Below, piece after piece: positions 14,537-52,200 of a stretch of 64,000 nucleotides of DNA. Origin of the DNA: Gordius albopunctatus (taxonomy: Eukaryota). Within the stretch, counting starts at the first letter, position 1, and each line of letters starts with the position of its first letter. A program made the position numbers and the translations under genes. The stretch spans positions 14,508,001 through 14,572,000 of the forward strand of contig OZ193909.1 of NCBI GenBank assembly GCA_964276515.1, read 5' to 3'. A model generated the notes under the pieces. It was not told where the DNA came from. It saw only the letters and a program-made list of their open reading frames with translations, and did no database searches.

Positions 14537-15038
14537 CAGCTCTCTCTCCGTATTACTACTACTTTATGTACCCATTGTACCCAAATAACAACAATCCACA
14601 AACCCTTTTTTATACCCATCATTTACATGAGTTGGGAAGTCTGTACATAATTGTTTTGACAATTGAGGCGTGTCGACAGACAGACACTATATATTTTTTT
14701 ATGTACACATTTACATCTATTATAAATATATTATGGATACTAGTCAGTTAAGTTGAATACTTACATTGGTATCATCGCTCTAAGTGTAGGGCATATTTAA
14801 TGTTTTGTTTTGGGGCGAAATGAAGATATAATTGATTTTCGGCGTATACTTGATGTGGCAGGACCATACATGTTACACACAATTACACACACACACAAAC
14901 CCTTTTTTGGATTCTCGACATTAATTTTCCACTTGTTAATGTGGTACGTTTATTCGCACAACATGATTCGTAATTTGTGAAACGTTAAATTACCATTCTT
15001 CAATAAAGTCTCACAATTAACGATAAAAAAAAAAAAAA
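14537..15038 (+). other. Hexokinase 3' UTR with poly(A) signal and genomically encoded poly(A) tail
   Basis: AATAAA 15002-15007 followed after 17 nt by A14 at 15025-15038. Confidence 0.85.
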
Positions 15039-15181
15039 TCCGAAGGGTTGGTTATGCCATTCCCTTCGGATCCCCTGGCTACGCTTTTACGTTTCACCAG
15101 GGGGTGTTTTATTAACGCGTTATCATCCTTATGTAAAAAATTATAATCGTCGTTGCGCGTAAATGTGTATGTGTGAACGAA
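15039..15181 (-). ncRNA. Structured 3' tail of element A (three stems, AATAAA)
   Basis: Stems 15038-15047/15062-15071, 15072-15078/15097-15103, 15115-15119/15156-15160; minus-strand AATAAA 15108-15113. Confidence 0.7.
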
Positions 15182-15258
15182 AAATTTTGGGGAGAATAAG
15201 GGAAAATATAAAGTGGCAGAGAGGGCAATAGCGTATAACACGTGGAACAGAAAAAATG
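15182..15258 (-). repeat. 3' copy of element A direct repeat (identical to 17982-18058)
   Basis: 77-bp exact match at offset 2800. Confidence 0.95.
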
Positions 15259-17277: not shown

Positions 17278-17958
17278 TTACGAACGCGGGGCAGGGGCCG
17301 CGTTCTTCTGGAAGTGTCGGCTCGGCTTTTTGCCTCTGCCCCTGCCAGCTCCTGGAAAAAACGACTTTCGTGGCGACTTGGGTATCGTTATTTCTACATC
17401 CTTGAATCCCATGTCCGTAAGCCATGTCGTGTCGTGCTTGGCTGCGGTTGCCCAATTGAATTTTATGGCCAGGCACAATGTTTTTAATTGCTTATCGTGT
17501 GCCACCAATATTTCCAGGGGGGATGTTGGTAGACACACTTGAGACATCATTATGGCGTATTTTGCTTCGTGTCTGTCTCTTTTTTGAACACGCTGGTCTG
17601 GGTCTCTAAGTAGTTCCTCAAGGCCTTGTGTGTGTTTTGCGATCTCCTCGCATAAGAACGCCGGGGTCTTAGGTGGGTCTGGCGCTGGTATGATTTGGAC
17701 CGTGGATGGCATTTGAATCGGCGCTATATTTGCTGGCTCTAGCTGCCTGTGACTAGGGCCCACCACAGACATCGATGCCGCTAGCATTTCCCTTAGGCTA
17801 TCGATCTGGCGTTGATTCGCTCTGTTCTGTTCCCTCTGCATCTCCACCAGTTTAGATCTTAGGTCCGCCGAGCCCGCACCGGGAACCCCCGGTCTAACAG
17901 GGCTCGGGGGATTGCTAATATCCTCTTGGCCGTCCTCCGTGCTTCTTGTTCTAGGCAT
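17278..17958 (-). CDS. Element A ORF1, Gag/core-like, 226 aa
   Basis: ATG start, intact; clear homology with B ORF1 (PAP.PP.T, GLEEL..DPD, HEAK.AI, QLK..CLAIKFNW.TAA, FFP.AGRG); basic/Gly-rich tail. Confidence 0.85.
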   Translation of the reverse strand: MPRTRSTEDGQEDISNPPSPVRPGVPGAGSADLRSKLVEMQREQNRANQRQIDSLREMLAASMSVVGPSHRQLEPANIAPIQMPSTVQIIPAPDPPKTPAFLCEEIAKHTQGLEELLRDPDQRVQKRDRHEAKYAIMMSQVCLPTSPLEILVAHDKQLKTLCLAIKFNWATAAKHDTTWLTDMGFKDVEITIPKSPRKSFFPGAGRGRGKKPSRHFQKNAAPAPRS

Positions 17959-17981: not shown

Positions 17982-18058
17982 AAATTTTGGGGAGAATAAG
18001 GGAAAATATAAAGTGGCAGAGAGGGCAATAGCGTATAACACGTGGAACAGAAAAAATG
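17982..18058 (-). repeat. 5' copy of element A direct repeat
   Basis: Exact match to 15182-15258; starts 8 nt downstream of the predicted TSS equivalent. Confidence 0.95.
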
Positions 18059-30570: not shown

Positions 30571-30773
30571 GTTGATTTAAACACAAATTTATATTTATGG
30601 TGTGTCTCTAATTAAACACTATTTATATGATTGAATAATTAAATGCTAAATTTAATATGGAAAAATAATTCTTTAATATTCTATTCCTTCTTGCATAACT
30701 TTGCACTTTTTCATTGCACAAGTACCCTTATTGAAACTTACCCAATATGGCCTAAGATATTTAATTTTTTTTC

Positions 30774-33202
30774 CTATAGCTGTTTATCACATTTAGTGGT
30801 CAGCTCCTTCAAGGAGGTTCTCCATGTATTTCTGCACTTACACCAGCTTCGCTTAAGCTCGTACATTTTTAAGTCCTTATCAATTTTATGCTTCCATGTC
30901 ACTTTAGGTCTCCCTCTCTTTCGCTTATCTTCGACTTGCACTTTCTTGATACGATTCGCCAAGTGACTTTCCTCCCGCCAGTCCAAATGGCCATACCATC
31001 TCAATCTTCTTACCACCAACTTTCTCTGAATCTGAACTACATTTAGTTTGTCCCTTATGTCTTGATTCCTTATATGGTCCTTTTTGCTTATTCCCAAGAT
31101 CCATCTCAACATTCGCATTTTTATTGTAGCCAAGCTTTGCTCCTCTTTTGCCTTAATTGCCCAGTTTTCCGCTCCATACAATACCGTGGGTACAATGACG
31201 GTGTTATATAACCGTCCTTTTGATTTGAGTGGTAACTTCCTGAATTTTAGCCAGCCTGCGTTTATTCTTGCCTTAATTTTGTTTTCCACACCCCTATCAC
31301 ATTGTACCCTAAAACTTTATATTCATTCCCCGACTCCAAGGATACATATTCAGTTTTATCTCGGTTGACCCTAAGGCCTTTGTTTTCGATTCGTTCCATC
31401 CACACTTTTACCTGCTCTGCTAATTCCACGTTTGAGCCTGCGCACAGGATGATATCATGCAAGGTGATTCGCGTTTCAGATCCTTCGTTATCGAATCCAT
31501 TATTGTTATGAAGAGCAATGGACTTAGGGCCGATTCTTAATGCACACCGACATTTAGACTGAATCCTTTTGATGTACCACTAGATGTCCGTACTTTGGTT
31601 TTTGCGTTATAAACATATCATTTATTAACATTATATAAGCCTCGGGTACACCATTGGAACTCAGGCTATCCCATATCAACTGCCTTGGCACTTTATCGAA
31701 AGCTTTCTCAAGATCGATGAAACAAATATAAAGATCCTTTTTGTTTTTTCTTATATACTTCCATAAGTCTCCTAAAACCATGTATTGCATCTGAAGTCGA
31801 CTTTCCTGGCATGAACCCAAATTGTCGTTCATCTATTGATATTATTTTTCGGAGTCTATCTTCTATAAGCTTTTCCCACACCTTCATTACGTGACTCGTT
31901 AAATTTATCCCTCGATAGTTGTTGCATTGTTGTACATCTCCCTTCAATTTATAAATAGGTATAAAATAGCTTTCCCTCCACTCATCAGCCATCATACCAC
32001 TTGCAAGTATTTTTTTAAACAGCCTTGCAAGTAGATGTACACCTAAGGGTCCTAGCATTTTGAAAGCTTCCATAGGTCTATTATCAGGTCCCAACGCTCT
32101 ACCCATGGTCATCTTTTTAAGCACCTGATCAACCTCTTCTTATGTCACTTCTAACTCTGGGTCATATTCATAGTTCATGCTATCGCACTTGTCCGAAAAC
32201 CCATTTTCACTGTTTAATAATTCTTTATAGTATTTTTCCCAACCATCTATGATTTGATGGTCCAGAGATAGAGTGATGCTATCTTTGCTCTTTATGGTTT
32301 TCACGTTTACCACATCCTTTGAATTCCTTTCTCGGGTCTTTGCGATTTTGTAGATCATTCTTTCTCCTTCTTTACTGGTTAACTTGGCATTTAAATTCTC
32401 GTAGACCTCTATTTTACCCCTTAGCTACACAACGCTTTGCCTCATTTATAGCTTTCACATATGCCAAGCCAATCGTGTTTCCTCATTTCTGTCGCATGAC
32501 CATAATTTGTAAAGGTTTATTTTCCACTTGACCAGGCGTTGCACGTCTTCGTTCCACCACCATGTCTCCTTATCTTTTTGTATACCTGGTTTACCTTCTC
32601 GTAGAACATATCTCGCTACTCATCTTACCGTGTTAGCTATTTTATTCCACATATCGCTAGCATTCTGCTGATCATCTATTTGCAGCCGTTCAACTATTTG
32701 ATCATTGTAAATATCTTTCAATTTTGGTAGCTAGAACCATTTGATTTTCCCATTTAATCTCTTCGGCTATTGTGTTTCACCTTGGAGATGGTATAGTCCA
32801 TCACAAAAAATCTATGCTGGACTGCAATAGCCTCACCTGGTATCACCTTATAATCTCCTACATTCTTTCATTCCTTTCTTGATATTAGGAGAAAGTCAAT
32901 CTGCGAAGATCGATTTCCACTTTTGTACGTTATTAGGTGATTTATATTGTTTTTGAAGAAGTTATTTGTGATGGCCAAATCAAATGCAACTGCTATTTTC
33001 AATATTTCGTCACCTTCATCGTTTCTCGCTCCGAAGCCATTTCCACCATGGTACCGTTCAAATCCTTCTCTTGTTTTGCCTACGTGACCATTCATATCTG
33101 CTCCAATTATAACTATCTCGGCTCTGGGTATCATTCGCAGCATTTTGTCTAATTCTCCCCGAAATTCCTCATTTTTTTTATCTGTGCATTCTGTTTGCAG
33201 AG
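30774..33202 (-). mobile_element. RTE LINE copy 2 (degenerate)
   Basis: Same ORF fragments as unit 1; retains IISIDERQFGF where unit 1 has a short deletion. Confidence 0.9.
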
Positions 33203-34880
33203 TGTCATATATGACACATATTAATTCTTTGAAGACGAGCAACGAGAGGCGCGGCATATGTGGAGTCGTGAAAGACGAGCAACCAGAGGCGCAGGGTAAT
33301 TACCAGGTGCGGGACGATAGCAAGCGAGAGACAAAAGGAAATCTAAGAAGAGTAACATGAAGGACGCAAAGGAGAATAACAACTGGCGCGGGACACACAA
33401 AGAGAGTATTATCAGAGGCAATAATAACTGGTGGAGGGAATAACAACTGGTGCAAGACCCGAGAAGAAAAGATTAGTATCCGGAAAAAAGGGACATCGGC
33501 GAATATACATAAAAACGAATCAATAAATTTTCCTAAAAGATAAACCGTTTTTGGCATAATTTTGTACTTGGAATAAAATATTTATCGGACATACGAATTA
33601 TTCTCGGACCTAATATTGGACGTACGATTTATTCGTGGACATAATATTCTCGGACCTAATATTGGACTTACGAGTTATTTGCGGACATAATATCGGCGCC
33701 CAACGTGAAAAAACCATTATTCGGGAAATCATAAACTGGGAAAAAAGTAAAGTGCGATACGAAGTCGGATACAGATAGGTAAGTTTATGATAAAAATTTT
33801 GGGGTATTTAATAATAATAATTTGTATATTCTTAAATTGGGCGGAAATTAAGAGGAAATTGTGTAGGATTGTGTTAAGCATCATTATTAGATTTCTAATC
33901 AACAATGTATATTAAACGAGAAATGTATGGGAGTATTATGTATATGTAATTGTTTTTTGTGTAGGTTTTCTATTAAATGTTTGCATGTCATGTATTATGG
34001 CTGCTTTAAAAAAATGTGAGGCCTGTGAGGGGCGGAAGCTGAGTATTAGCAATAATGTAAAGTGTTACAAATGCGGAGAGTTAGGCCATGGAATGAGGTC
34101 ATGTCCGAGAGATAACCAGGGCCTTATATGTTTTATCTGTCGAGGGGAGGGGCACAGGTCGAGAGAGTGCCCTAGGCGAGTGGTGAAATGACTAATAGGG
34201 TGTAGAACTGTGTTTTGGCATGCTTTTAATTGTATTTTGTATATAAAAATATTTAATTTTGTTCTTGTTATGATTGTAAAAAGGATATATCTTTATATTT
34301 CATATATGTTTTACATATTACGTTGGATAAGGCAAAAGTATTTAGACCTAATTAGCTTAGAATTAAAATTGTATCGTTGTGTAGGGAGAGGCAGCTATAA
34401 ATTTTAGCGAAGGACGGTAATGGCGAGGTGTGTGTTTAAAATGGGGTTGGGATGGATGAGAAGGGAATGGGGAAAAAGATTAGTAAGAACATATAACTAT
34501 GTAAAAGTTGGGGCATTTGCGAATAAACAACCGTGTATCAAGGTCAAGTTGAATGGGGAAACACATCTAATGTTGGTAGATACCGGGTCCGCAATTACGA
34601 TTATAAATAAAGAGGCATGGGTTACTTTAGGCAAGCCGAAATTAGACATGAAGTGTACGGTTAACGTCCGCTTGTTAACGGGGCAAGAATGGAAAGTCTT
34701 AGGTAAATGCATGGTAACAGTTAGGCACGATAAGAATATAAAAAGGGCAGAGGTGTATGTCATGGACTGGAAAGCCATTAATATCGTGGGGTGGGAATGG
34801 ATTGATGCATGTTCGAAGTAGTAGAGTAGATAAACAACAACACAAACAACAACACACACTTAATTCCTAGTGTTGAAGAA
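33203..34880 (+). mobile_element. LTR + PBS + Gag knuckles + protease remnant, copy 2
   Basis: Duplicate of 10739-12380; ORFs 33985-34191 and 34420-34821. Confidence 0.75.
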
Positions 34881-37470: not shown

Positions 37471-40089
37471 AGAATTCAGTCATATATACTAGGTTTCCCA
37501 AAATTTGCAAGAACAAATTAAGATGGAATGAAAGATATGCCATATTATTAGTAAAAGGTAAAAGTGTTTGGTAAGTTTTAAAACCTGATAACTTTGAACT
37601 GTCAAAATGAACTGCGTTAGCTTTTTTATGTTAACAGTTTGTTATTAACAATTCTTAATTTTATATAATTTATAATTGTAAACAATACGCCGATAAAAAG
37701 TATCTTATGTTTATATGCCCATTTTGTCATTAAAGTACATGAGCGTAGCCAGGAAGATGGCAGAAGGGGCGAGAATGCCTATGGGGGGGGGGGTAATGGT
37801 TAAGCAGGGAGTCAGATAATACTCGTACAACGTTATAGTTTATTTTAAATATACTATTTGAATATTAATAATTTAAGTATTAATAAATGTTTTATAGCAA
37901 TTTTTACAAAAATTTAGCCTTTTTAATATTTGTATTGAAAAAACTAAGTCATCTGTTTGCATTTTACACTTGATTTTGAGGAATAGGCGAAATGGCGAAT
38001 GGAACGCAAATAAAGAGTATGACCTTGAAAAAACCAATAGTCATCCTTCCAAAACGTACAACTTTTAATTAAGAGTTTATTTGATACTCTATAAATTTAA
38101 ACAATTTGGTGTAAGGGACATAATTTAAATTATGAATATAGACTCTATTCAAAATCATACGCGTATGTACAGTATAAAAAACAACAAAGGAAAAATGAAA
38201 TAGTAACATTTTATCTAATCTAGCGAGTAAATGAATGGATTATGGTGCGAATTTTAGTTACGACAGTGAAATGAAGGTAAAAAATTTGCACTATATTCAG
38301 GGTTAGGTTGGTGGATAGCGGTTTTATTATCAAAAAGGGACGGGGCAAACCAATCTGGGAAACGATAAATATAAAGAACCTTTTAAGGGGTGTGGGGTGC
38401 GGTGAGACGTCGGAAAGAAATTATATAAGGTCAAAAAATAGAATAAAAAATTTCGATATACACTTTGGCCAGTGATTTTTTCCATTGGTCAGCAGGTCAA
38501 AAAGCGTGTAAATACATAAGGATCAATTATTAACAAAACTGAAAAAATTTCCAATTCTTGGCTTCTGTTACGTTTGTTGTTTGGTTTGGGGCTATATTTC
38601 CAAAGGGTTTTAGCTGCTAGCTCGAGTCTTTAGTCGTAAAGGCTCGTTCTTGTGATTAGGTTTGCGGGATTTATTAGTCTGCTGTTAGGTTGACAATAGG
38701 CTTACTCAAGGATTTATTTCATTTATATCTGAATTGACAATAAGCACATTCAAGAATTTTTTTGGTGTTATATCAGTCGACAATAGGCAAATTCTAGGAT
38801 TTTATTCAATCTTTATAGTCAATATATGTCACGAAATGTTTCAGCGGGAAAAGTCTTTCCGGTAATTCAAGGTGCTTGAGTGGCGGTTCAAAAGGTTATA
38901 GGGGATACAGTGATACAGCTCCACGGATAAAAGTTTTGGGGTAATCAGATTATTAAGACGGCGCGGGAAAAATAGCAAGGAAAAATAATTAATGAATTTT
39001 AACGGGATACATGGGTTTTTTAATGACAGGGTTCCTTAACCTCCTGAGGTCGTTGCTCTATTTGCTTATTTTCTATTATCCCTACCTATCCTAAAAAGGA
39101 ATAGCTATTAAATTAACCCCGGCCTTATTTTCAACTCATCCAAACTTACTTCCTAGCCCATTAATCTTAATGTTAATAAACTTACGCATTCCCATCTTAC
39201 ATACCGCTATACTAAACTATTCATCCAACTTATTTTCAAGTACGTTGATCTTAATGGTCAACACAAGTGGAAAATTTCCAACCTTAACTTAGCCCATTAA
39301 TCTTAATAGTTACCCCAACTAGAACATTCCCATCTTTTAATCTTGACAGCTACCCCACCTAGAACATTCCCCTCTTTAAATACATTGGTAATAAATAATT
39401 AAAGGATGCCTTATTCAATCCTTTGTATACGAACATTCCCAACTTTTAATACACCTGTGATAACTTATTAGGGTGGGCCCCCTTAACTCCTGAGGATACA
39501 ACAGGCCAGTGCTTATTTCTTCCATTGATCAGCAGACGGCCAAATAGATAGCCTATACTTATAATATAGAAAAAAAATCGATTTTAATCTCACTTTGGCC
39601 AGTGGTCATATTTTCAAATGGTCAACAGACGGCTAAATAGCTAGCCAATATAACATGATTTATGATTAGTGTAAAAATAGTTTACCATGTTTTTAATATA
39701 ACGCTTTTATGAGTATTAAACAAAAAAATGAAATATGTTTAAAATATTTTTATCCTAGCTGATTTATGCTCAATATATATTCGTTAATATTAAATTGAAT
39801 CCTGTTTCCATGCTAAGAGGTTTTATAGTGATTAATATTATGTTACCTGAACATGTTTTAACCAGCCTCTTAGTTATTGCTGGAGTAGTTGAAGTTCCCA
39901 AAATCTTTTGTTCGTTAAATAATTGTATAATGAATTATAACTATTTATTAATGATAAAACAACTAAGACATAATTTTACATAAGTACAATGATGGGGTTT
40001 TATTACATTTTGATCAAAAATTATTAATAAAATAAATGAAGAAAGGCATATGTTAAAAAATCGTATATTGTAAATATCCCAAATTGAAA

Positions 40090-40963
40090 TTATTCGTTAT
40101 TACAATAACTAACAAAACTTTGTGTGTCATTAAATGAAGGCTTTCTTAAAGAAAGACTGTTAAAAGCTGCCAAACTTAAAGAACTTCTCGCTTCGTATTC
40201 TGGATGGTCATAATTAGGCTTAAAATAAAATTTGATTTCACTTTCATCTTTGGACGCATTAGATCGACTTTTCCACAATTCTAATATTAATGCGGAAGAC
40301 ACATTTGGTGTATCATCCAGCGTTATATTATAAAAATTTAGTAGATGAATAATTTGATAATCGTGAGCAACGTAAATAACTAAATTTTTAGTCCTTCGGT
40401 TAAAACTGTTATTAAATTTTAATTTAATATCTTCAACTAAATTATATAATAAGTCATCAAGCATGCGACTCTTGTTTGAGAAGTAATTGTAGTAAGACAA
40501 CATTAAGTGAGCCAAATTCGTGTAAATAGTTTTATTGGCCTACGCAGGCAAACCCATTCCATTTTCGTTCAAGGTTTTTAGCACTTCAAATATCCTGGCA
40601 GGCAATCGATCGTCTATGATACCTTCGCTCGTATAATTTTTTAGCGAAAGTAAGAAAGCCGTTTGGTTTATCAATAAATTATTGTATTCACTATTATTCG
40701 ATCGAGAAATATGTTGCATACCTTGACTCAGCTTTTTACAATTTTTAAGGCTGCCCATTAAAAAGCAGGACTCTAACAAAGTTGTCCTATTATTAGGAAT
40801 TTTGACTGACCACTCATAAGGTAGAGTTTTGTTTATAGCCAAAATATCCATATTCTCCTGAGTTAAAGAATATTTAGGATCATTGTTGCTGATTCCTATT
40901 AAGATGGCCAACATGCTCGTAATAGTTCTATCTGAGTTTGTGGATAACAAATGAGTATTAAAA
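40090..40963 (-). pseudogene. Acid phosphatase partial copy (lacks RHG exon region, internal stop)
   Basis: TGG>TAG at 40540; 5' end replaced at the tandem junction. Confidence 0.85.
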
Positions 40964-41304
40964 TTTATCCTAGCTGATTTATGCTCAATATCTATTCGTT
41001 AATATTAAATTGAATCCTGTTTCCATGCTAAGAGGTTTTATAGTGATTAATATTATGTTACCTGAACATGTTTTAACCAGCCTCTTAGTTATTGCTGGAG
41101 TAGTTGAAGTTCCCAAAATCTTTTGTTCGTTAAATAATTGTATAATGAATTATAACTATTTATTAATGATAAAACAACTAAGACATAATTTTACATAAGT
41201 ACAATGATGGGGTTTTATTACATTTTGATCAAAAATAATTAATAAAATAAATGAAGAAAGGCATATGTTAAAAAATCATATATCGTAAATATCCCAAATC
41301 GAAA

Positions 41305-42178
41305 TTATTCGTTATTACAATAACTAACAAAACTTTGTGTGTCATTAAATGAAGGCTTTCTTAAAGAAAGACAGTTAAAAGCTGCCAAACTTAAAGAACT
41401 TCTCGCTTCGTATTCTGGATGGTCATAATTAGGCTTAAAATAAAATTTGATTTCACTTTCATCTTTGGACGCATTAGATCGACTTTTCCACAATTCTAAT
41501 ATTAATGCGGAAGACACATTTGGTGTATCATCCAGCGTTATATTATAAAAATTTAGTAGATGAATAATTTGATAATCGTGAGCAACGTAAATAACTAAAT
41601 TTTTAGTCCTTCGGTTAAAACTGTTATTAAATTTTAATTTAATATCTTCAACTAAATTATATAATAAGTCATCAAGCATGCGACTCTTGTTTGAGATGTA
41701 ATTGTAGTAAGACAACATTAAGTGAGCCAAATTCGTGTAAATAGTTTTATTGGCCCACGCAGGCAAACCCATTCCATTTTCGTTCAAGGTTTTTAGCACT
41801 TCAAATATCCTGGCAGGCAATCGATCGTCTATGATACCTTCGCTCGTATAATTTTTTAGCGAAAGTAAGAAAGCCGTTTGGTTTATCAATAAATTATTGT
41901 ATTCACTATTATTCGATCGAGAAATATGTTGCATACCTTGACTCAGCTTTTTACAATTTTTAAGGCTGCCCATTAAAAAGCAGGACTCTAACAAAGTTGT
42001 CATATTATTAGGAATTTTGACTGACCACTCATAAGGTAGAGTTTTGTTTATAGCCAAAATATCCATATTCTCCTGAGTTAAAGAATATTTAGGATCATTG
42101 TTGCTGATTCCTATTAAGATGGCCAACATGCTCGTAATAGTTCTATCTGAGTTTGTGGATAACAAATGAGTATTAAAA
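41305..42178 (-). pseudogene. Acid phosphatase partial copy (lacks catalytic N-terminus)
   Basis: 1215-bp tandem duplicate of the preceding copy; open for 286 aa but without RHGxR. Confidence 0.85.
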
Positions 42179-42231
42179 TTTATCCTAGCTGATTTATGCT
42201 CAATATCTATTCGTTAATATTAAATTGAATC

Positions 42232-42402
42232 TCCAGGACCGGGTTAGGCCCGATCCCGGATTCCCCTAGGTACGGTCTCGTAAGAGGCTTTCGCTAGGGG
42301 CCTTTTATTCACGCGAATCGACGCATTAAATTATCGTAATATGAGCCGGCGGTAACAATTCGCGTACATGAATAATCAAGAAAAAGTTGTGTTTAGAAAA
42401 CG
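42232..42402 (-). ncRNA. Structured 3' tail of element B
   Basis: Hairpin 42232-42260 (two G-U pairs on the minus strand), stems 42263-42269/42294-42300 and 42311-42318/42358-42365; minus-strand AATAAA 42304-42309. Confidence 0.72.
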
Positions 42403-42511
42403 AAATTTTGGAGAATAGGCTTGGGGACAAAGCGGGCGAAACAGGTGAGGAGGGTGTCACGTAGGAAAAACAAGCGAGTGATACCCGGAGGGCAGACGGG
42501 GGTATTTATAC
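42403..42511 (-). repeat. 3' copy of element B direct repeat, containing TATA + Inr
   Basis: TATAAATA 42510-42503; TCACTC 42481-42476 (A 31 nt downstream of the TATA start); exact match to 45195-45303. Confidence 0.93.
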
Positions 42512-42530
42512 CTGGATGCATAGGGTTTAG

Positions 42531-44378
42531 TTAGGGTTCTAAATCGACTATTTCGACCCCTATTTCGTTTTCCCAAAAGTCTAGATCGATGTCGTTTGCC
42601 TCGGGAAGACCTTGTTTGAGAACGTAATCGATATCGGTGTTGGTTTGTTCCTTATCTGGTGCGTCGGGGGCCCATACCCGGGATGGGTAGTCGGCCGGGT
42701 TTAAATGGGTTGGGATCCAAGAGAGGTTAAAGTGGATGTTTAGTAGGTGTTTAATCCCCCAGGTTTTTACGAAGGTAGCTATGACTTCCTCGATCACTGG
42801 GGAGTTGGACCCCCCTTTTTTCAGTACGTAGTATGCCGTGGCGGAGTCCGTATACAATTTCGGGTGATCATGCCCACTAAGGTAAGATCGAACGTACCCA
42901 TACAGGACCGCTACGGTTTCCGACAGTGTTATATGGTATGGCTCTCTCCATTGCCAACCCAAGAAGGCTGCTGCATTCTGAAAGCTGTTTGAGTGCTGGC
43001 CGTAATCGTCGGAGACCCCGATATGCGTGCCGGATGCGTCGACGTAGACGACGTTGGTAGGCCTTACCCAGAGTGGTATGGTTTCGTGTGTGAGCTTTAA
43101 GATACCCATGAGCTTGTGCGCGGCGAGGCTTCTATCGAACCACGGGGGGGTTCCTTGCGTGAGGCTGTAAAAGCTAGAGAAAAGTTTGGACATGCCCGTA
43201 AGGTTATAAAAGAAATAATTAAGGATGCCCAATGCTTCGAGTAGCGTGTTTGTGGGGACATCTCGTGAGAGGGCTAGGAAGAGGATGTCGGCCGCGATTT
43301 GAAGCCGGTCAGCTGTTCCTGGTTTGCATTTAATTGCCGAAACATCGAGTTTGAGTTCCATGCCGAGGTACTCGATGTGTTGTGAAGGCATGATGGAGGA
43401 TTTGCTGACGTTGATCGTAAGGCCCCATGCTTTGGCTAGGTCGGCTAGGTCTTCGAGGTCATTCTGGACGTTGTCGTAATCGGGAGAGTAAATTAGGAGG
43501 TCGTCCAGGTATACGTTGTATTTAGACCGTTTTACTGCCTTTTTAGCGAGGTCGCTAACCACCATTTGTAACACGAACGGGGAGAAGGATGCTCCCATGG
43601 GCAACACATTGTATTCGAAGGGCTTTCTCTTCCAGACGTACCCCAGGTATTTCTTGGTGCTGGGGTGGATGGGAATCGAGAAGAATGCGGCCTTGAAATC
43701 TATTTTGGCCGCCCATCTGGCGTCTGCTATGTGTTTGGCGGTAAGTGGGATGTTCGCTAGCTTCAGGGGTTTCGGCAGAAAGTTTCTAGAAGCAAAAGAC
43801 AAATCGGTTATTACCCTTGCATCCCCGTTCGGTTTGGCGATGAAGAAAGTGGCGGATCGGATGAGGAGTTTCGCAGTCCTTGATACAATCCCTGCGTTAA
43901 GCATTTCCGCGAAGTAGGCCGGAGGTCCTTTTGAGTACCTCTTCGATTTGGGGGGCTGTATCAATCCCCCGTTCAACCGGATGTTGTATGCATCCAGGAT
44001 GGCCTTGTAGCCAAAGGTGGCTACCTTCCTGCTAAATGGCGACATTAGGTCGTGCGGTGTGAGGCGTGAAGTTCGGATGTCGAGCTTTCCGCTTGGCTTA
44101 GCAGTAGTTGACGCCCTGCTCCAGCCGAAAAGCACTTTGTGTGCTTGTATCAGCGATCGGATTTGACCCGATCCTGTGTCCCGGACGAGGGACGGTTCGG
44201 CGTCCTTGAGTCGTTGTTCCGACTCAGCGGGAGATGGCGGAGCGTCGTTTGGTGGCGGTGGTGTCGACGGCGGAGTGTCCGGCAGCTTCGGATCGTCGTC
44301 ATTAGGTGGCGAGAAGATGATGCGTCGCGTTTCCCTAAGAAAATGAAAAACATTTTTAAGCCACGTGGGGGAAACCAT
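42531..44378 (-). CDS. Element B polymerase: RT + RNase H (frame open upstream to 44579)
   Basis: WAAKIDFKAAFFSIPIHP, VLPMGASFSPFVLQ, YLDD, IEYLG; YVDAS..SE..YTDS..WIPTHLNPADYPSR. Confidence 0.95.
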   Translation of the reverse strand: MVSPTWLKNVFHFLRETRRIIFSPPNDDDPKLPDTPPSTPPPPNDAPPSPAESEQRLKDAEPSLVRDTGSGQIRSLIQAHKVLFGWSRASTTAKPSGKLDIRTSRLTPHDLMSPFSRKVATFGYKAILDAYNIRLNGGLIQPPKSKRYSKGPPAYFAEMLNAGIVSRTAKLLIRSATFFIAKPNGDARVITDLSFASRNFLPKPLKLANIPLTAKHIADARWAAKIDFKAAFFSIPIHPSTKKYLGYVWKRKPFEYNVLPMGASFSPFVLQMVVSDLAKKAVKRSKYNVYLDDLLIYSPDYDNVQNDLEDLADLAKAWGLTINVSKSSIMPSQHIEYLGMELKLDVSAIKCKPGTADRLQIAADILFLALSRDVPTNTLLEALGILNYFFYNLTGMSKLFSSFYSLTQGTPPWFDRSLAAHKLMGILKLTHETIPLWVRPTNVVYVDASGTHIGVSDDYGQHSNSFQNAAAFLGWQWREPYHITLSETVAVLYGYVRSYLSGHDHPKLYTDSATAYYVLKKGGSNSPVIEEVIATFVKTWGIKHLLNIHFNLSWIPTHLNPADYPSRVWAPDAPDKEQTNTDIDYVLKQGLPEANDIDLDFWENEIGVEIVDLEP

Positions 44379-44454
44379 ATCTTTATCGCCATTGGGAGTC
44401 GGTAAGCCATCGGGCCCGAGTTCCCAGTTCGTTGCTGCTTTCTGAAGGCGCTTT

Positions 44455-45183
44455 CTAATTCCTGGCAGGGGCCGCGCCCTTTTTGACGTTGCGGCCCTTA
44501 GGTGCGCCTCCGCCCCTGCCAGCTCTCGGAAAAAACTGCCTTCTCTGGGCGTCTTTTTTGACGTCGACGTCGGGCATTCTCATCTCCTTGAGCCAGGCCG
44601 AGTCTTGGGAGGCGGCGGTCTGCCAGTTAAATTTTATAGCCAGACACATCTTTTTAAGTTGGTCGTCTATAGGAATTAGTTCCTCCAGGGTCATCGGGAT
44701 CCTGGTGAGTTTAGCGCAGTGTATTGCGAATTTAGCCTCGTGCTTATCTCTTTTTGCTGCTTTATTATCCGGGTCCAGGATTAGTTCCTCCAGACCGCGT
44801 CGGTGTAGATTGATATCGTCCAATACCGATTCGACGGTGCGCGGAGGTTCGGGCGCCGGCATTATTTGAAGCGTTGAAGGTGCCCCTTGCTGCACGTTGG
44901 GCGGCATGGTGGGGGTAGAAGCCACGGGTATCGGGCCCAGTGTTGTTCGCTGGAGGAGCTGCTGCAGCGCCTCCGTCTGGACCCTTTGCGCCTCCGCTTG
45001 TCTTGTTAGGGCGTTCACGGCCGTTTCCTGCATGGCGGCTATTCTAGCCAATAACCCCTCAACCGCGTTGTCAGAGCCCATTCCGGACCTTAAGGTCGTG
45101 TTAGTAGGTGGCGAAGTCATAGACGTTTCCGGCGTAATCAAGAAAAAACTATTATGCTGGTCTTGAGACCTCGTGTTAACCAT
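44455..45183 (-). CDS. Element B ORF1, Gag/core-like, 242 aa
   Basis: ATG 12 nt after the 5' repeat; homologous to A ORF1. Confidence 0.85.
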   Translation of the reverse strand: MVNTRSQDQHNSFFLITPETSMTSPPTNTTLRSGMGSDNAVEGLLARIAAMQETAVNALTRQAEAQRVQTEALQQLLQRTTLGPIPVASTPTMPPNVQQGAPSTLQIMPAPEPPRTVESVLDDINLHRRGLEELILDPDNKAAKRDKHEAKFAIHCAKLTRIPMTLEELIPIDDQLKKMCLAIKFNWQTAASQDSAWLKEMRMPDVDVKKDAQRRQFFPRAGRGGGAPKGRNVKKGAAPARN

Positions 45184-45194: not shown

Positions 45195-45303
45195 AAATTT
45201 TGGAGAATAGGCTTGGGGACAAAGCGGGCGAAACAGGTGAGGAGGGTGTCACGTAGGAAAAACAAGCGAGTGATACCCGGAGGGCAGACGGGGGTATTTA
45301 TAC
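45195..45303 (-). repeat. 5' copy of element B direct repeat; element begins at the TATA box
   Basis: Minus strand begins GTATAAATA at 45303; host sequence resumes at 45304 (equivalent to 21937). Confidence 0.93.
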
Positions 45304-47444
45304 GTCGAGTCTAAGAATATGACTACTTTTGCAATATCATCAAGCTTATCAAAATTAAAATTCAAAAACTTTACTGGATATTTGATTTAAAAATGAAATG
45401 TAAATATAAACTTCATGTTGTTCATATATAAGATAAACTGTTTTATTCATAGGTAACTAATTGCAGGCAATATGATTATGGCATAAGTAACTTATAATAT
45501 TCTAAAATTAAAATCTATATATATGAATCATTTATTTAATTTCTTGTTAAACGCAATTTGGGAGCCACTCAAATTTTCAATCGGAAAATTCTTTTAAATA
45601 ATATATGCTTTTAAATATTAATTTTGTTTTTAATATTTTCCTCAACTTATTTTAATCTCAGTATATAATTTTTACTTCCTGGAAATATTAATTTCGAATA
45701 TTTGGCCTTTTAAAACATTAAAAAACTATTTTTGGAAGATTTTAAAATTTTTATACACCTCGATTGAGCTGGAACTACACATACAGTAAGTTTTAAATTA
45801 ACATTTAGCCTTACTGTTCGCTTTTTGAGGCACTAGTCAACATTTTTATTCTTACCCTTTGATTTAACTTAGCTAAACCTAACTTATTCATGCACAGTTA
45901 GTAATTAGTTTGATGTGAAAATGGATCTCTATCCAAAATTAGGGTTTATTAATATATTTATATGGATTGTATTAAAGGTTTGGACATTTTTTATGCAATA
46001 AAATATTCCTTTTAAGAATTATAGTAACTAAATTAAAAAAGTTTTACTTTTAAACATAGCTATTTAAAAATTATAAATTTGTTATGTGCTTTTAATTGTT
46101 TTGATTAAATTGCTTTTTAAAGACAAAGGTGAGAAACCAGAGGCGTAGCCACCCCCCTATAGGCATTCTCGCCCCTTCCCACCTTTATCGCCCATAAATT
46201 GCATAGCAAATATGCTACTTTTATACGGAGTATGGATGAGTTTCGTTCCCCCTTCCCTTCCCCTCCTCCCCTTCCCACGAGGGTTCTTTTCCTTTTTGAC
46301 ATTCATTGAAAAACTACAAACTACCTTACAATTAAATAGACTCTTTGTATATTAAAATAAGATATACTACTTTTGGAAACCTCAATTTGTGTCTAGGAAA
46401 AAACATTCGATTGAATTATGAAAAGAAGAAACGTTAGATTTAAAAGTTTTTGATATATGGTTTTGCTCTATGTCCGCATATAAAATCTTTAATTAATAAA
46501 ATAAATAAACAACTTTACTATTTTAATAATTATACAAATAACACTTACAAGTGTTTGCCTGGGAATTAGTCATATATATTAGATTTCCCAAAATTTGCAA
46601 GAACAAATTAAGTTGGAATAAAAGACATGCCATATTATTAGTAAAAGGTAAAAGTGTTGAATAAGTTTTAAAACCTGATAACTTTGAACTGCCAAAATGA
46701 ACTGCCTTAGCTTGTTTATGTTAACAGTTTGTTATTAACATTTCTTAATTTTATATAATTTATAACTGTAAACAATGCGCCGATAAAAAGGATCTTATGT
46801 TTATAGGCCCATTTTGTCGTTAAGGTACATGAGCGTAGCCATGAGGATGGCAGGAGGGGTGGCTGCCCCCCCCCCCTAAAAAAACTACGGGAAAAATATT
46901 TTCAATGCAAAAACTTTGAAAAATTAAAAAAAATTATGTTTTGCACTTTTAAACGTTTTGCCCCCCCCCTAATCTAAAACCTGGCTGCGCCCATGATAAA
47001 GTATATCTTCTACGTATATAAAATTCTCGTGTCACAGTCTTTGGTCCTCAACTCCTCCGAAACAGCTGGGCTGATTTAGATGGAAATTTCTGCGAATATT
47101 TGGTAGGTCTGAGCCTAGGTTTTTAACTATATTCCAAATCTCTAAGTCATAAGACGGTCAAGTTATTTAGTTTTATACGTCTTGACGTTTATTAAAATAT
47201 CACTCAAACGCAACCTCATGACGTACTGCGTATCTATCGTGTAGGTAGTGTGATAAATGCAGTAGGCATGTGTTGCGGAAAATGGAAACTTTTTACGATT
47301 TAAAACATTAAATATCAAAGTCATTTTTTTGCTTATTTTTCACGTCAATTATTATTATTATAGGACGGTCGTGTCCCCTCCTGCGTGGCTAAATAAATTA
47401 AAAAATCTAATTTTGGCATTTTTTGCGCGTTAAATAAGGAGAAA

Positions 47445-49221
47445 GTTTGTGCGACCAGTGGGTGTGGTTTTTGATTATTGGTTATGAAGTGGCTCATGAT
47501 GATTATCGCTGCGTCAATTTTTCTAAGGAACTTGGCGTTGATAGAAAGTTAATGCTGGGCTAGGTTGAGAGCATTCGTTGTGGTGTGGTTTCAGATTTCT
47601 GGGTATTAATAGATAGATTCCATTTGTTTGCTAGTTTTAGGAAATTCCTCGTGTTTTGTTGTACCAGGGCAGCTATTTTGGCATATATTAGGATGTCATC
47701 CAGATATACATTGTATCGACAGGTAGTGATGGATTTAATGCACAAGTCCAACATAATTTGTTGTTGTACAAATGGGGAAAAAGATGCTCCCATAGGCAGC
47801 ACCCTGTATGAGTATTTCGTTCGTCCTGATTTAAAACCGAACAGGTGTGAAATTGATAGGTCTAATTGGATAGAGAAGAAAGCGCTCTTCATGTCAATAT
47901 TTCATGCGTAGTTGGCCTCCGCTAAAGGTTTAGCAATTAATGGGATAGATTTTAGCAAAAAGGGGTATGACGCGAAGTTTTTTGAAATGATGGATAGGTC
48001 TGCGATCATTCTGGGGGACCCATCAGATGGATGCGATCGCGAGACGCTTCCTTCGTACAATGTAGGAATCGATGATTTGGAGTACTAGGTGCCGATTGAC
48101 TCTAGGAATAGGTCGAACATACCGGGGGACAAGGTACTGCCAGTTGTTGTTCGCAAGGGTTCTACTATTGAACCGAGGTTCAAAGCCCCGTCTAGCAACA
48201 TTATAAGTAAACTTGGATTGTGTATGATGTGGCCTGAGCAATGTGGTATTGAGGTCCAATGGTGATGAAAATGGAGTCTTGTTCCCATTGCTTATGTCCC
48301 GAAAGACCGGGAAATAGGGGATGTTAGAAGGTTCATGGATGGTGGGGATCGATTCACTATCGAGTCCGATATCATGTAGGGGTTATTAATATATTCCGCC
48401 ATATCTTAGTGGGTCGGTAGCAGCGTGAAAGGGGTCTTTAGTGGAGGGGCCCCTTCGTCCGGACCATCATCGAGTGAAACAGAATTGATAGCGATGCTCC
48501 GGGCTATACGAATTTAATTGTCTAGCCATATTGGAGCAGTCCGTCTCCAACAATGCTCGGCGGATTATCACCACAGCCGAGGGCCGCCCCTGCCGCCCTT
48601 ACGTATTTCTGTTAAAAGGCGCCTTCCTTGGCATAGGCTTTTCATAGTTCGGCCGAAAAGAGCTAATCTGTTCACTCATCTGTCCGAACCCATTTTTCAC
48701 AGCCCAGTCTTTGGTACGTCCGGTGACTACCTGCCATCCGTAATATGTTGCCATTGCGATGGTTTTAACCCGTTCGGCGAACATTTCGGTAGCTTTGACC
48801 GGATCGTTCCATACTTCACCTAATTCCAGAAGGAAATCGATTTCATGTTTCGGATATAAGGGTACTGCTTTGTTCTTTTTATCAGCCTCCTTCAAACCTT
48901 TAAGTCGTTGCTTTAGTAGTTCAGGTCCTATTTGTACCACGCCGAGACTCTTTTCTTAACCTCACGGGCTATGATTTGGTTTAGCTCTTCAGGAGTGAAG
49001 GACATCGTGTGGGGTTAATAATTGTGGAGATTATCCGGTTTTGTCGAGGCGGGTGTAAATTAACCTTTATTTTTGTCTTTAGCGTTGTCTTACGTGTCTG
49101 AACGCCCAACTTACCCATAATTTTCATTTATTATATTTCCGCGTTTATAATTTGCGTTTCTAAAATAAAATAAAGTGGAGATGGCGAAATATTTTGCGTA
49201 ACCATCCCCAGGGAGCACCTC
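47445..49221 (-). mobile_element. Lineage C RT element, copy 3 (decayed)
   Basis: Same RT motifs with additional deletions. Confidence 0.85.
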
Positions 49222-52200
49222 TTTATTTTGCTCTCACTTTTTTAATTAAATCCAAAACATGTGTATCTAGTAACATTTTTGAGATCCAATGTTTGTAGAG
49301 GTTGAGAAACGTGAGCATTATCAATACATCGGATATATTTTAAAATTAGCTTACTAGTAACATTGTTGATGTCCAAAAAAATATTCATAGAAATTCATAG
49401 ACATTTTGTCAGTTAAATTTTTGTCGAATGAACGGTTACCAAATAGACTGCTCATTGAGCATGCATACATATGAAAAAGTGATGCCTGTTTTACCACCAT
49501 CTTCAACTTATGTAGGTAAGTTTCCATTTTATTCTTTGATATGTTATAAATTTGATAGATGGAGTCATTAATGCAAAATGTTACCTTAGAAAATGACATA
49601 TGTAGGGACATCAACATACGTAACGTCAATCAAGTACGATGTCAATTCCGAGAAATAAGTTAATCACAGATTTGAATTTATTTTCCTAGAAGATCGCACG
49701 CTATGACGTCGATTGACAGATCTTCCTTGAAACTTATCGGTATATTTAGATCTTCTCAGAAGATCATAGATATATTTAAGTCTTCCCAGAAAATAATCGA
49801 TCTTCATGGAAACTCATCGATTAATTTAGATCTTCCAAGAATATTATCGATTTTCCAATAATAATGATTATGTATTTTATAATAACTATATAAACTCAAT
49901 TTTTACGCAAATATAACCAGTCGAATAATTCTAGCAAGATGAATTGTATTCTTTGTTCCAAAATTATCCTTGTATAAGAGTATACAAGCAAGAAACGTAT
50001 TATATCAAAAGACATTTTTTTCTTTCCAATGATATTCTAATAAATGTGAGATTATTTTTTATTTGATATTTAAGTTATCCCAACAAAGATATTTTTACTT
50101 CAATCATAGAAATAGACTATGTTGATTTTAGTGAATTCATCATCATCAAAGGGTATTTGAGAATGAGCAATCAGCCACTGCTCCATTTTTCAAATTCTCG
50201 TCTCGTCTCGGGAGCGATTATAAAAATCTCGATCTCGTCTTGACGAGAATTCTCGCCTCGTCTCGACTTTTAAAAACAAATATATACTGAAAATATTTAA
50301 AATATTTAAAAAATGTTTAAAATACAAATGACAATTTTTTATATTTTTTAAGAAACTTTAATACACAAACTTTTCAAAGATTTAGCGGGACACGACATCT
50401 CATTGACAATATAAAGATATAAATTAATTCATAAAGATAACATTTTCTATGGAAAGTGCAGAATAAAAGACTATAAATAAATTTGAAGTATATAAAATTA
50501 AATGTGAATGTTCTAGCAAATTATAACATTTGTATCAAATTCACTTTTTTGTCAACTATAAATAGACTTAATAATACGTTTGCTTATAGTTGACTTAGTT
50601 GCATAATTGAGCAAATTGAGACCCTTTGTTAACCCTGGGTAAAGCTTCTTAATTGACTAAGTCTATTGTTATCATCATCAATTATATACCATAGTGTTTA
50701 TTGCATGTTTACTATATCGTTATAAACCATAGAGTGCGAGTGACTTTTAATGATAATATTATTATTTACAGAATTAATAACTAGATGCACATATCAAAAC
50801 GTTGTAAAAACAACAATAAAAGCAGCATTATTATAGGATTAAGATAAGGTTTTAAACTGTAAATTGCACGTATTTAAATTTATGACAGAAATCATTATAA
50901 TCAAATTTATATTCCAAATAATTACCTTCCAATTCCAACTAACTTTGCCATTAAATATTTATTGATGGAAAACAGTATAGGTTCGTGTATTTATTTTATA
51001 TTTCACAATTATGGAAATATAATAAATGCACCTGCCAACCCAGCGTATAATGTGAAAAGTAATGCATATGACAAATCTATGTATTCACATAATGTCTTAT
51101 TAAAATTCAAAAATTTGGGAGGTATACTATTAGTTGAAGCATAAAAACTTTAAAAAAATCCATGATTTAGATTTAATCTATTACGGCATCATTAAATACT
51201 CTATTGTACTTTTGAAATCGTTAGGCGGGTGCTAAAAAATCTAGACCTACTTATTCAAACTGATTCACTACCAATTTATAATTAACGCATTATGCAGGAT
51301 GAGTAACTGGAAAATATAAATATGCTTTAGTAATGTTTACTAGTCCATCAGAACTCATTCTAAGCCTAAAATTTGTTTAATATTTAATAGTGCTATGGAT
51401 ACAAATAGGTGATAAAGATATTATAAAATTATTAACATACCCTATGGATCAACCTTACTTAGGTAAATGATTGCCGAATTTTAAATTTTTTGCAAAATAT
51501 ATGATATTTACTACACTTAGTAATTTTTTAAGGATGTTATATAAATGCACAGTAAGAAATTAAAAAATGCGCAGTAAAATATGCACAGTAATATATTTAA
51601 GTGCGCAGTAAATTATTAAAAATTGCACAGTTAATTAATAATAAATTGCTCAATAATTAAACAAAATTGCACAGTTAATTAACAATAAATTGCTCAGTAA
51701 TTTAATAAAATTGCTCAATAATTTAGTAAAATTGCTCAGTAATTATATAGCCTTGCAGAGTAATTTTATAATATTTCTCAGTAATTTTGTAGCATTGAGC
51801 ATTGCTCAGTAATTTAATAACATAGCTTATTGCTTAATACTTTGAATTGATAAGTAATTTTTGAGCATTGCTCAGTAATTTAATAATATTTCTCAGTACC
51901 TCAATAATTTAATAAAATTGCTTAATGATTTGAATTGATAAGTCGTTTTTGAGCATTGCTCAGTAATCAGAACACAACTTAGTTTTCAATAGAATGAATT
52001 GGTTGAAAAAATCTATTATTTTAAAAAATGCCTAATAATCTTTACAAATTGTTCAATAATATTTAGATGCTAAATTAAAAAAATATTCAGTTTATAATTC
52101 AATAACTAATAATTAAATTATCATTGATTTTATGTTTTTATATAAAAAATTTAGTTTGTTGATAAAATTGAGCACTTATTTATTTTAGCTAAAATAAATA

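Follow-up and report, generated by a model that had tools for sequence, protein, structure and literature searches.

The question raised by this locus is how a retroelement with a promoter-like segment behind its polymerase gene comes to carry a copy of the same segment at its 5' end. To our knowledge, every retroelement that is transcribed by RNA polymerase II (Pol II) must regain a promoter that is missing from its own RNA. The known solutions are long terminal repeats (LTRs), internal downstream promoters, tandem neighbours and the internal complementary regions (ICRs) of DIRS elements. The DNA analyzed here, called the window, is a stretch of 64,000 nucleotides (nt) of Gordius albopunctatus (assembly GCA_964276515.1, contig OZ193909.1, positions 14,508,001 to 14,572,000 of the forward strand), and it contains two retroelements, which are named A and B. 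A sequence-only reading of the segment directly behind the pol stop codon of B (42403..42530) had proposed that a promoter is stored at this site and is copied to the 5' end of the element, without the formation of a true LTR. All element coordinates are window positions, and both elements are located on the minus strand.

Element B is a compact retroelement of 3,072 nt, which extends from 45303 down to 42232. Element A extends from 18058 down to 15039, and its plan is the same as that of B, so that both have a length of 3.0-3.1 kb. The amino acid identity between A and B is 50% for open reading frame 2 (ORF2, pol) and 41% for ORF1, and, thus, they represent two families and are not copies of one. 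The order of parts is identical in both elements, i.e., a 5' repeat, ORF1, ORF2, a short spacer, an internal repeat, and a unique tail with three hairpins that reaches to the last base. This anatomy is real and conserved between the two families, and our confidence in it is much higher than our confidence in the strand-transfer mechanism that is discussed below. The parts of element B are the following:

45195..45303, minus strand: 5' repeat (R1) of 109 nt, which begins with a G followed by TATAAATA; the predicted start A is at 45271; exactly equal to 42403-42511
44455..45183, minus strand: ORF1, 242 amino acids (aa), gag-like; in a low-confidence model it has one long helix, a small bundle of helices and a basic Gly/Arg tail
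42531..44579, minus strand: ORF2 frame with its ATG at 44378, 615 aa, reverse transcriptase (RT, with YLDD) and RNase H (with ..NPADYPSR)
42533-42531, minus strand: pol stop codon TAA
42512..42530, minus strand: spacer of 19 nt between the pol stop and the repeat, the last 11-14 nt of which are the 5' end of other copies
42403..42511, minus strand: internal repeat (R2), which ends in CCTATTCTCCAAAATTT
42232..42402, minus strand: unique tail of 171 nt with three hairpins; its 3' boundary was taken from paralogues

The corresponding parts of element A are as follows:

17982..18058, minus strand: 5' repeat (R1) of 77 nt without a TATA box, exactly equal to 15182-15258
17278..17958, minus strand: ORF1, 226 aa
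15312..17387, minus strand: ORF2 frame, RT and RNase H, with TTG at the site of the ATG of B
15314-15312, minus strand: pol stop codon
15182..15311, minus strand: post-stop spacer and internal repeat (R2, 15258-15182)
15039..15181, minus strand: unique tail of 143 nt, hairpin layout as in B
15025..15038, minus strand: 14 consecutive T, which adjoin the terminal hairpin and may be element tail or target

The ends of the elements were set from paralogous flanks within the window, which was made possible by the segmental duplications that extend across it. For B both ends were fixed in this way. On the 5' side, the flank matches the paralogue at 21937 as far as the base that precedes G-TATAAATA, and on the 3' side it matches 41016, 20243 and 39801 as far as the base that follows ..GGTCCTGGA. 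The 5' flank of A is common with 37610 and five other places, and this boundary is ambiguous by two bases (CA) that also occur in the paralogous flank.

The two repeat copies are exact in both elements. In B, 42511-42403 equals 45303-45195 at 109/109 nt, both by blastn and by string equality, and in A, 15258-15182 equals 18058-17982 at 77/77 nt. The repeats of the two families can barely be aligned to each other. The internal repeat begins 15-20 nt past the pol stop. In both families ORF1 follows the 5' repeat directly, and this repeat is flanked by tail sequence on neither side; the 3' repeat is followed by the unique hairpin tail; both halves of this description had been given in the sequence-only reading and were found in both elements. 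Local alignment of the tails against the rest of the respective element revealed no second tail copy, neither direct nor inverted, in A or in B. The alignments obtained were matched by 289, 111 and 299 of 300 shuffles, with the exception of one 13-mer of B. An LTR pair was therefore rejected, because the 5' repeat has no tail and the 3' repeat is followed by a tail of 171 nt (B) or 143 nt (A) inside the element. A permuted circle was rejected, because ORF1 comes after one copy of the repeat and the tail after the other, and a unit-length circular genome was rejected, because in both families the repeat has two different following sequences in chromosomal DNA. Split direct repeats of the order A1-B1-A2-B2 are described for the PAT and Ngaro elements (PMC4157794). 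The earlier statement that the arrangement is neither an LTR pair nor a permuted circle nor a split direct repeat is thus borne out by the lack of a second tail copy.

Promoter-like motifs are present at the same place in both families. In B, the TATA box TATAAATA is at 42510-42503 and the initiator-like TCACTC is at 42481-42476; its A at 42479 is the predicted start, and the first T of the TATA box is 31 nt upstream of it. In A, the TATA box TATATAAA is at 15296-15289 and TCATTC is at 15268-15263, its A at 15266 is the predicted start, and the spacing is 30 nt. These coordinates agree with the earlier claim of a TATA box and an initiator-like motif at -30/-31 just past the pol stop of A and B. 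When the 130 nt after each pol stop were shuffled 20000 times with preserved composition, both motifs at such a spacing were obtained in 23/20000 cases for B and in 79/20000 cases for A. A chance origin of the two motifs at canonical spacing, in the same place in two families with diverged surrounding sequence, is unlikely.

A further motif marks the end of the repeat in all four repeat copies, namely CCTTATTCTCCCCAAAATTT in A and CCTATTCTCCAAAATTT in B. A search of the window for the 20-nt motif with at most 3 mismatches yielded 4 matches versus 0.14 expected, and none of 100 shuffles reached 4. These matches are the two exact copies of A and two plus-strand sites with 3 mismatches outside the elements; the 17-nt form of B is outside the 20-nt pattern and was located separately. 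The repeat of A contains CACGTG, and that of B contains ACGTG, which is CACGT on the other strand. Of the features that had been ascribed to both repeats, the shared end motif thus held for all four copies, and CACGT held for A, as CACGTG, and for B on the other strand only.

The 5' ends of the copies were then compared with the predicted start. The 5' end of A is at +8 to +10, and that of B is at -32, i.e., the 5' copy of B contains the TATA box plus one G. The paralogous flanks confirmed what had been read from the sequence, that the 5' copy of B reaches back to the TATA box and that of A starts 8 nt (here 8-10) past the predicted start. A random truncation would fall within 10 nt of the predicted start, as is the case for A, in about 10 of 3,000 cases. 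Additional copies were available from four coded public runs that hold parts of B, all as contigs and none recorded as RNA; 788, 138, 12 and 3 contigs of the four runs matched B with a likeness of at least 90%. In run X1, 357 contigs had a likeness to B of at least 99%, 248 of 95-99% and 183 of 90-95%, and this spread shows that the B family is a diverged repeat family.

Three run contigs have their 5' ends at about -42 to -45. These three longest ends are located 11-14 nt upstream of G-TATAAATA, within the post-stop spacer, and a truncated copy has its 5' end at about +122. Those contigs that run past the TATA box continue into the spacer (4/4 among those listed, with narrower matching). No 5' end inside pol was present among the listed run contigs or the window copies. 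The variable extension of 5' ends into pol that had been predicted was therefore not borne out, because the longest ends stop 6-9 nt after the pol stop; their clustering speaks for a defined stop, or for a defined piece of plus-strand DNA, and not for free-running extension into pol. The 3' end recurs at 42232-42235 in the run contigs. The signature is thus similar to that of a long interspersed nuclear element (LINE), with a fixed 3' end and variable 5' ends.

Another explanation is that the TATA box and the initiator are not a working promoter. The RNA would then start at or upstream of the 5' end, via a downstream internal promoter or by read-through, and the repeat would be an R-like transfer signal, a packaging signal or a translation signal. 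The clustering of the longest 5' ends about 45 nt upstream of the predicted start, which resembles a true RNA 5' end, is in line with this explanation, as are the uninterrupted ORFs of A, which has no 5' TATA box, and the end-of-repeat motif, the conservation of which between the families suggests a role other than transcription. However, the occurrence of both promoter motifs at canonical spacing in two families is improbable by chance, a start upstream of the TATA box would leave the conservation of the box unexplained, and the 5' end of A is within 10 nt of the predicted start. We regard this explanation as unlikely.

Three run contigs contain a junction between two copies. In element sense, the X2 contig consists of the tail, TTTATTATTATT and ATGCATCCAATGTATAAA, the X3 contig of the tail, TTTATTATT and CCTACGCATCCAGGTATAAA, and the X1 contig of the tail up to 42235, TAC and GCATCCAGG. 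In addition, contigs of X1 and X2 contain the tail, TTTATTATTATT and then a copy that is 5'-truncated in ORF1 (joint 45149->42232). The junctions could indicate a tandem promoter as in HeT-A and Penelope, in which the post-pol promoter would fire through the tail into a downstream copy, and the 5' repeat would be a by-product of the array. In HeT-A and Penelope, sequences in the 3' untranslated region (UTR) of an upstream copy drive the downstream copy (PMC2377424), and three contigs do join the tail to the spacer and TATA box of the next copy, with one more joined to the 5'-truncated copy. Yet both copies in the window are solitary and not in tandem, B has a TATA box of its own at its 5' edge, and the 5' repeat has no tail sequence, whereas tail sequence would be expected at the 5' end of any transcript that starts in an upstream copy. 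The tandem promoter is improbable, and it is placed slightly behind a non-functional TATA box in our ranking.

Two side observations concern the sites of these 5' ends. The 13-mer TTTTTCTTGATTA is present at 45136-45148 (minus strand), in ORF1 and 47 nt past the 5' repeat of B, and again at 42374-42386 (minus strand), in the tail and 17 nt past the internal repeat; it is the alignment noted above as an exception, and 4/300 shuffles were as good. The 5'-truncated copy in X1 and X2 starts exactly at TTTTTCTTGATTA (45149). The pol stop of B lies within AACCCTAACTAAACCCTA (42512-42536, minus strand), which consists of two telomere-like units, CCCTAA / ACCCTA, and the longest 5' ends of other copies start in the second telomere-like unit of AACCCTAACTAAACCCTA.

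The tail has the same layout in both families, i.e., hairpin 0, GCGTKAATAAAA, hairpin 1, two bases and hairpin 2, and the last base of the element is the last paired base of hairpin 2. In B, hairpin 0 is followed by GCGTGAATAAAA (42314-42303), hairpin 1 (42300-42263) and the terminal hairpin 2 (42260-42232), and the fold has -52.5 kcal/mol and a z-score of -2.55. In A, hairpin 0 is followed by GCGTTAATAAAA (15118-15107), hairpin 1 (15103-15072) and the terminal hairpin 2 (15070-15039), with -42.5 kcal/mol and a z-score of -4.89, and 0/200 shuffles were as stable. The motif GCGTKAATAAAA occurs in the window in the two tails only (2 matches versus 0.05 expected). Compensatory changes between A and B were found in hairpin 1, in which an A-U pair is replaced by G-C, and in hairpin 2, in which three pairs are altered on both sides; they were read from the single folds, because RNAalifold on a MAFFT alignment misaligned the hairpins and retained 4 pairs only. 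The tail hairpins fit no curated family, with 0 Rfam matches in the window at gathering thresholds. The modelled folds suggest that the tail is kept in shape and not in sequence, and, as it ends at the end of the element, it may be the site where DNA synthesis is set up. As a separate observation, the terminal hairpin of B-family copies in the runs is often followed by TTTATTATT(ATT), whichever sequence comes next, A has T14 after it, and the B copy in the window has nothing. This T/A-rich run may be a simple-repeat tail, a preferred target, or an RNA tail that was added without a template or by uridylation.

How could the internal copy give rise to the 5' copy? We give about an even chance to the view that the 5' copy is rebuilt from the internal copy by homology-guided strand transfer during reverse transcription. 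This model is favoured because 5' ends upstream of the start cannot stem from an RNA that begins at the start, because these ends are identical to the context of the internal copy, and because the repeats are exact. What was seen directly is the anatomy and the positions of the ends, and we infer the steps from these. In the 5' copy, Pol II would initiate some 30 nt past the TATA box, and the RNA would begin within the repeat and lack the promoter. It would continue through the internal copy, in which the promoter would be ordinary 3' UTR, to the end of the tail. DNA synthesis would begin at or next to the terminal hairpin and would proceed to the RNA 5' end. A would be the product expected where synthesis halts at this point, and its 5' end within 10 nt of the predicted start fits a complementary DNA (cDNA) that has reached the RNA 5' end. 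Through the homology of about 77-85 nt, the nascent strand would then pair with the internal copy, either that of a second RNA or that of a piece of plus-strand DNA, and the transfer would copy the TATA region and the spacer, leading to 5' ends like that of B and to longer ones. The rebuilt copy would carry its own promoter wherever it lands, and insertion would occur by host DNA-break repair, without an enzyme encoded by the element. The internal copy as source of the 5' copy, which had been suggested before, fits the end of A, the upstream ends of B and the three contigs, and the identity of the repeats. The likeness to Penelope that had been drawn at the same time is loose, as the pseudo-LTRs are described as partial tandem copies that are not made by reverse transcription (PMC2377424).

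Several points speak against restoration by strand transfer. The start site is predicted from motifs only. The three longest 5' ends lie within 3 nt, which is a better fit to a defined stop or a primer site. The three junction contigs may stem from one ancestral tandem locus and would then not count as three separate events. Each of them is head-to-tail (tail, 0-12 T/A-rich bases, spacer), so that tandem arrays or circles also fit, and the run contigs do not separate chromosomal tandems from extrachromosomal circles. The 5' end of B could be that of a truncated cDNA of a longer read-through RNA instead of a transfer product, and identical repeats are also expected in any young copy of a parent with identical repeats. 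By eye, no purine-rich primer-like tract was found next to the spacer.

The encoded proteins were analyzed with respect to domains, structure and relatives. RVT_1 was the only Pfam family in ORF2 (E 1.9e-24 and 7.7e-24), ORF1 matched no Pfam family, and neither element contained an integrase, recombinase, endonuclease or protease detectable by Pfam. The RNase H was modelled at a predicted local distance difference test score (pLDDT) of 80-94, and the motifs YLDD and DAS..E..D..NPAD..SR align. ORF2 ends about 40-55 aa past the RNase H motif and contains no methyltransferase. The structure model of ORF1 was poor (pLDDT 59), and it had 0 matches in BFVD at E<=0.001, which speaks neither for nor against a capsid fold. 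The ORF2 frame is +1 relative to ORF1 and is open from 44579, about 200 nt upstream of the ATG of B, and this upstream part is conserved as protein (..PTPNGDKDM versus ..PTLNGDKDL). The 9-mer GTTTTTTCC is present in the ORF1/ORF2 overlap at 44528-44536 in B and at the same place, 17354-17362, in A (both minus strand). The sequence suggests that a Gag-Pol fusion is made by a +1 slip on U6C at the candidate site GTTTTTTCC.

A HMMER search of 1.84 billion representative proteins resulted in 11,894 hits at E<=0.001, only 3 of which were below 1e-30. These three are uncharacterised proteins of the nematomorph Gordionus sp., which are 34-39% identical and have the family motifs in common. The query and 78 of its 79 best hits were scanned for domains (P0033 was left out for its length). 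RVT_1 was found 79 times, RT_RNaseH 19 times, a Dam-like methyltransferase 7 times and the hepadnaviral polymerase C domain 6 times, and the 8 families found in total did not include an integrase. ESM Atlas neighbours were Euglenozoa RT/RNase H proteins (0.96) and the hepadnavirus Protein P (0.94), and the best PDB match was the Ty3 RT (E 3.2e-9). A BFVD fold search with ORF2 was non-discriminating, and polymerases of caulimoviruses, hepadnaviruses and retroviruses were retrieved alike. Scans for related loci retrieved 12 metagenome loci and 1 viral locus with distant RTs (24-34% identity), a word-index protein search gave 1 weak hit, and a search of a phage collection gave no match. The protein similarities place the family in a DIRS/hepadnavirus-like RT neighbourhood, with no named group assigned.

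A third, older relative, family C, is also present in the window. Its RT is 33-45% identical to those of A and B and has the same NVYLDDILIY motif. All copies are interrupted by stop codons and cut off within the RT, and they are therefore uninformative with respect to a 3' repeat; most belong to segmental duplications. The copies are:

55555-57102, minus strand: family C copy
1613-3125, minus strand: family C copy
24066-25581, minus strand: family C copy
47445-48939, minus strand: family C copy
60876-61440, plus strand: family C copy

The protein neighbourhood raises the possibility that A and B are chromosomal dead ends of an episomal element similar to hepadnaviruses or caulimoviruses, with the repeat as the terminal redundancy of an RNA of more than genome length. 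The hepadnavirus Protein P was among the ESM Atlas and BFVD neighbours, and 6 of 79 relatives match the hepadnaviral C-terminal polymerase domain. The head-to-tail junctions, the lack of target-site duplications and the apparent loss of host sequence at the insertion site are also in accordance with this. The order of start site, repeat, hairpin and AAUAAA resembles the end of a pregenomic RNA. The general layout of pregenomic RNA is given in PMC12691608. Against this, a circle with one repeat would give a single following sequence, and here ORF1 and the tail follow in both families. ORF1 and ORF2 resemble a gag-pol pair joined by frameshift and not overlapping C and P genes, and the elements form a dispersed repeat family with many diverged contigs in the runs. 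A P protein of Hepadnaviridae/Blubervirales was rejected, because neither DNA_pol_viral_N nor DNA_pol_viral_C was found at E<=0.01. The resemblance to hepadnaviruses is at the level of features and fold only, which are common to all reverse-transcribing viruses. We consider an episomal origin very improbable.

The insertion sites were examined at the junctions 42231/42232, 45303/45304, 15038/15039 and 18058/18059. No target-site duplication was found at the junctions of A or B, and the flanks of each element are not contiguous in any paralogue in the window. In the paralogue at 20 kb, the points equivalent to the junctions of B (20243 and 21937) are 1,693 nt apart, and A is located at the edge of a repeat that is found at six other places in the window. 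By sequence, the sites resemble an insertion during which target DNA was lost or rearranged. As no insertion enzyme is encoded, the simplest reading is that host repair captured the elements at chromosome breaks; it is based on two loci, which were judged against paralogues.

In a further alternative, A and B would be recombinase-less derivatives of DIRS, PAT or Ngaro elements that form circles, the insertion of which would depend on the tyrosine recombinase of a relative acting in trans. The repeats would be the A1/A2 half of split repeats, the internal repeat would template the joining of the circle ends, and restoration of the promoter would be a side effect. Recombinase elements usually have no target-site duplication, and none was found in either copy. 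A Dam-like methyltransferase is typical of DIRS and PAT elements and was present in the 7 scanned relatives mentioned above, and the 8 families found in that scan include no integrase. The Euglenozoa neighbours in the ESM Atlas also fit, and the head-to-tail contigs could be circle junctions. On the other hand, there is no B1 repeat, and, thus, no internal sequence could serve as template for a tail-to-head junction. A recombinase is missing from both families, which are 50% identical and have uninterrupted ORFs, ORF2 has no methyltransferase, and non-contiguous flanks in the paralogues are unlike a clean recombinase insertion. Of the 53 ORFs of at least 110 aa in the window, 28 were scanned, the others being ORFs in A and B, antisense frames and duplicates in segmental copies. 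Neither a recombinase nor an integrase was found among the 28, and a tyrosine recombinase was present neither in these nor in A or B. Of the four alternatives discussed, this one is rated highest, and it is nevertheless unlikely.

Restoration by strand transfer has features in common with several known systems. Compared with the DIRS order, the likeness is that an internal copy of terminal sequence rebuilds the element from a transcript that lacks its ends (PMC7192593, PMC4157794). For DIRS-1, the ICR is described as essential for rebuilding the full element from an incomplete transcript (PMC7192593). By analogy, the proposed logic would be akin to this ICR and to the regeneration of U3 in LTR elements. 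A and B may also belong to the same broad RT/RNase H neighbourhood as the DIRS order, and they share with it the lack of a target-site duplication. In contrast to this order, they have no tyrosine recombinase, no methyltransferase and no B1/B2 pair, and their 3' end is a unique hairpin tail. DIRS-type repeats were rejected, because an A1/A2 pair only is present, with no B1, ICR or inverted terminal repeat.

With LTR elements and retroviruses, A and B share a YxDD RT followed by RNase H, and probably a gag-pol expression by frameshift. In the proposed model they also share a promoter upstream of the start, which the RNA carries in its 3' part and which is restored through a shared repeat. The differences are that the 3' repeat of A and B is not terminal, as another 143-171 nt without a counterpart at the 5' end come after it, and that neither U5 nor a tRNA primer site follows the 5' repeat. 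An LTR retrotransposon was rejected because of the lack of an integrase (rve), of an aspartic protease in pol and of a target-site duplication.

HeT-A and Penelope are similar in that the promoter is in the 3' untranslated part and that head-to-tail junctions occur in the family (PMC2377424). They differ in that their arrangement needs a tandem or partial-tandem neighbour, the 5' 'LTR' being the 3' terminus of another copy, whereas the 5' repeat of A and B is an internal segment without the terminus and is present on solitary copies. A Penelope pseudo-LTR was rejected on these grounds. A Penelope-like RT, which would be telomerase-like, without RNase H and usually accompanied by a GIY-YIG endonuclease, was also rejected, because an RNase H and LTR-type RT matches are present and no GIY-YIG family was detected by Pfam.

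The hepadnaviruses and the HEART retroelements, which are described as hepadnavirus relatives (PMC12691608 and PMC11551314), share with A and B a size of about 3 kb, a core-like ORF together with an RT-RNase H, the absence of an integrase, and a promoter positioned after pol and before a terminally repeated segment of the RNA. In contrast, the copies of A and B are linear and chromosomal, and neither a terminal protein nor a hepadnaviral polymerase family was detected. In addition, the HEART RT rows in the supplement of PMC12691608 read (Y/H)(I/L)DNFL in 7/7 Ixodes cases versus YLDD in A and B, in a comparison by eye only.

LINEs of the stringent type have a 3' stem-loop and a short simple-repeat tail that are recognised by the RT. 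A and B resemble them in the fixed 3' end at a conserved terminal hairpin, sometimes with a short T/A-rich run, and in the variable 5' ends, among them a truncated one in ORF1. They differ in that the RT of A and B is of the LTR/DIRS type with an RNase H, and in that A and B have no endonuclease, no target-site duplication and no internal promoter that is downstream only. A LINE was rejected, because a LINE-type RT and an APE or REL endonuclease are lacking.

The surroundings of the two elements in the window consist of large segmental duplications with 98-99% identity. A 1.2-kb tandem unit adjoins B, and several of the duplications begin or stop at an end of A or B (18054, 45304). The window contains the following additional features:

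1-11184 / 22470-33648 / 45304-49980: segmental duplication
18054-21406 / 37610-40965: segmental duplication
39749-41016 / 40964-42231: duplicated unit pair
13496-14533, plus strand: intronless hexokinase-like open frame of 346 aa, with domain 1 (partial) and domain 2 (E 9.5e-62)
6740-7906, 29186-30160 and 52477-53451, minus strand: MULE/SWIM transposase remains
9112-10835 (minus strand) and 57659-58977 (plus strand): two LINE-type RTs, one with an endonuclease fragment
11898-12308, plus strand: LTR-type aspartic protease fragment
20534-21667, 41308-42213 and 63231-63998: tandem histidine acid phosphatase paralogues, among mobile-element remains

The hexokinase-like frame is located in the unique DNA that forms the 3' flank of A and may be a processed copy. 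The LINE fragments of the window (57659-58480, and 9112-9675 with 10407-10835) are separate from A and B.

With regard to the question of how the promoter is regained, the principle that an internal master copy restores what the transcript lacks is known. New is the use of a single short repeat, the internal copy of which is located between the pol stop and a unique hairpin terminus. Also new is the presence of such a repeat in an element whose only products are a gag-like protein and an RT-RNase H and which has a LINE-like end signature. No description of this architecture was found in the literature searched, and the original HEART description may contain something similar. As a speculation to which we assign a low probability, the elements could represent an undescribed lineage without integrase and recombinase between DIRS-like retrotransposons and hepadnavirus-like viruses. 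Such a lineage would replicate through linear DNA, use the terminal RNA hairpin to prime or position the polymerase, restore the promoter from a 3' UTR master copy and enter the chromosome by host break repair, and its layout of start, repeat, hairpin and AAUAAA would be a linear forerunner of the terminal redundancy of pregenomic RNA.

If the proposed mechanism is true, a single short master copy in the 3' UTR, together with a single strand transfer, would be a minimal solution to the loss of the promoter, realised in an element whose coding capacity is limited to a gag-like protein and an RT-RNase H. It yields a testable prediction on the start sites and on the distribution of 5' ends. It may also bear on the persistence of elements without an integrase, and on the transition from retroelement to virus that has been proposed for hepadnaviruses.

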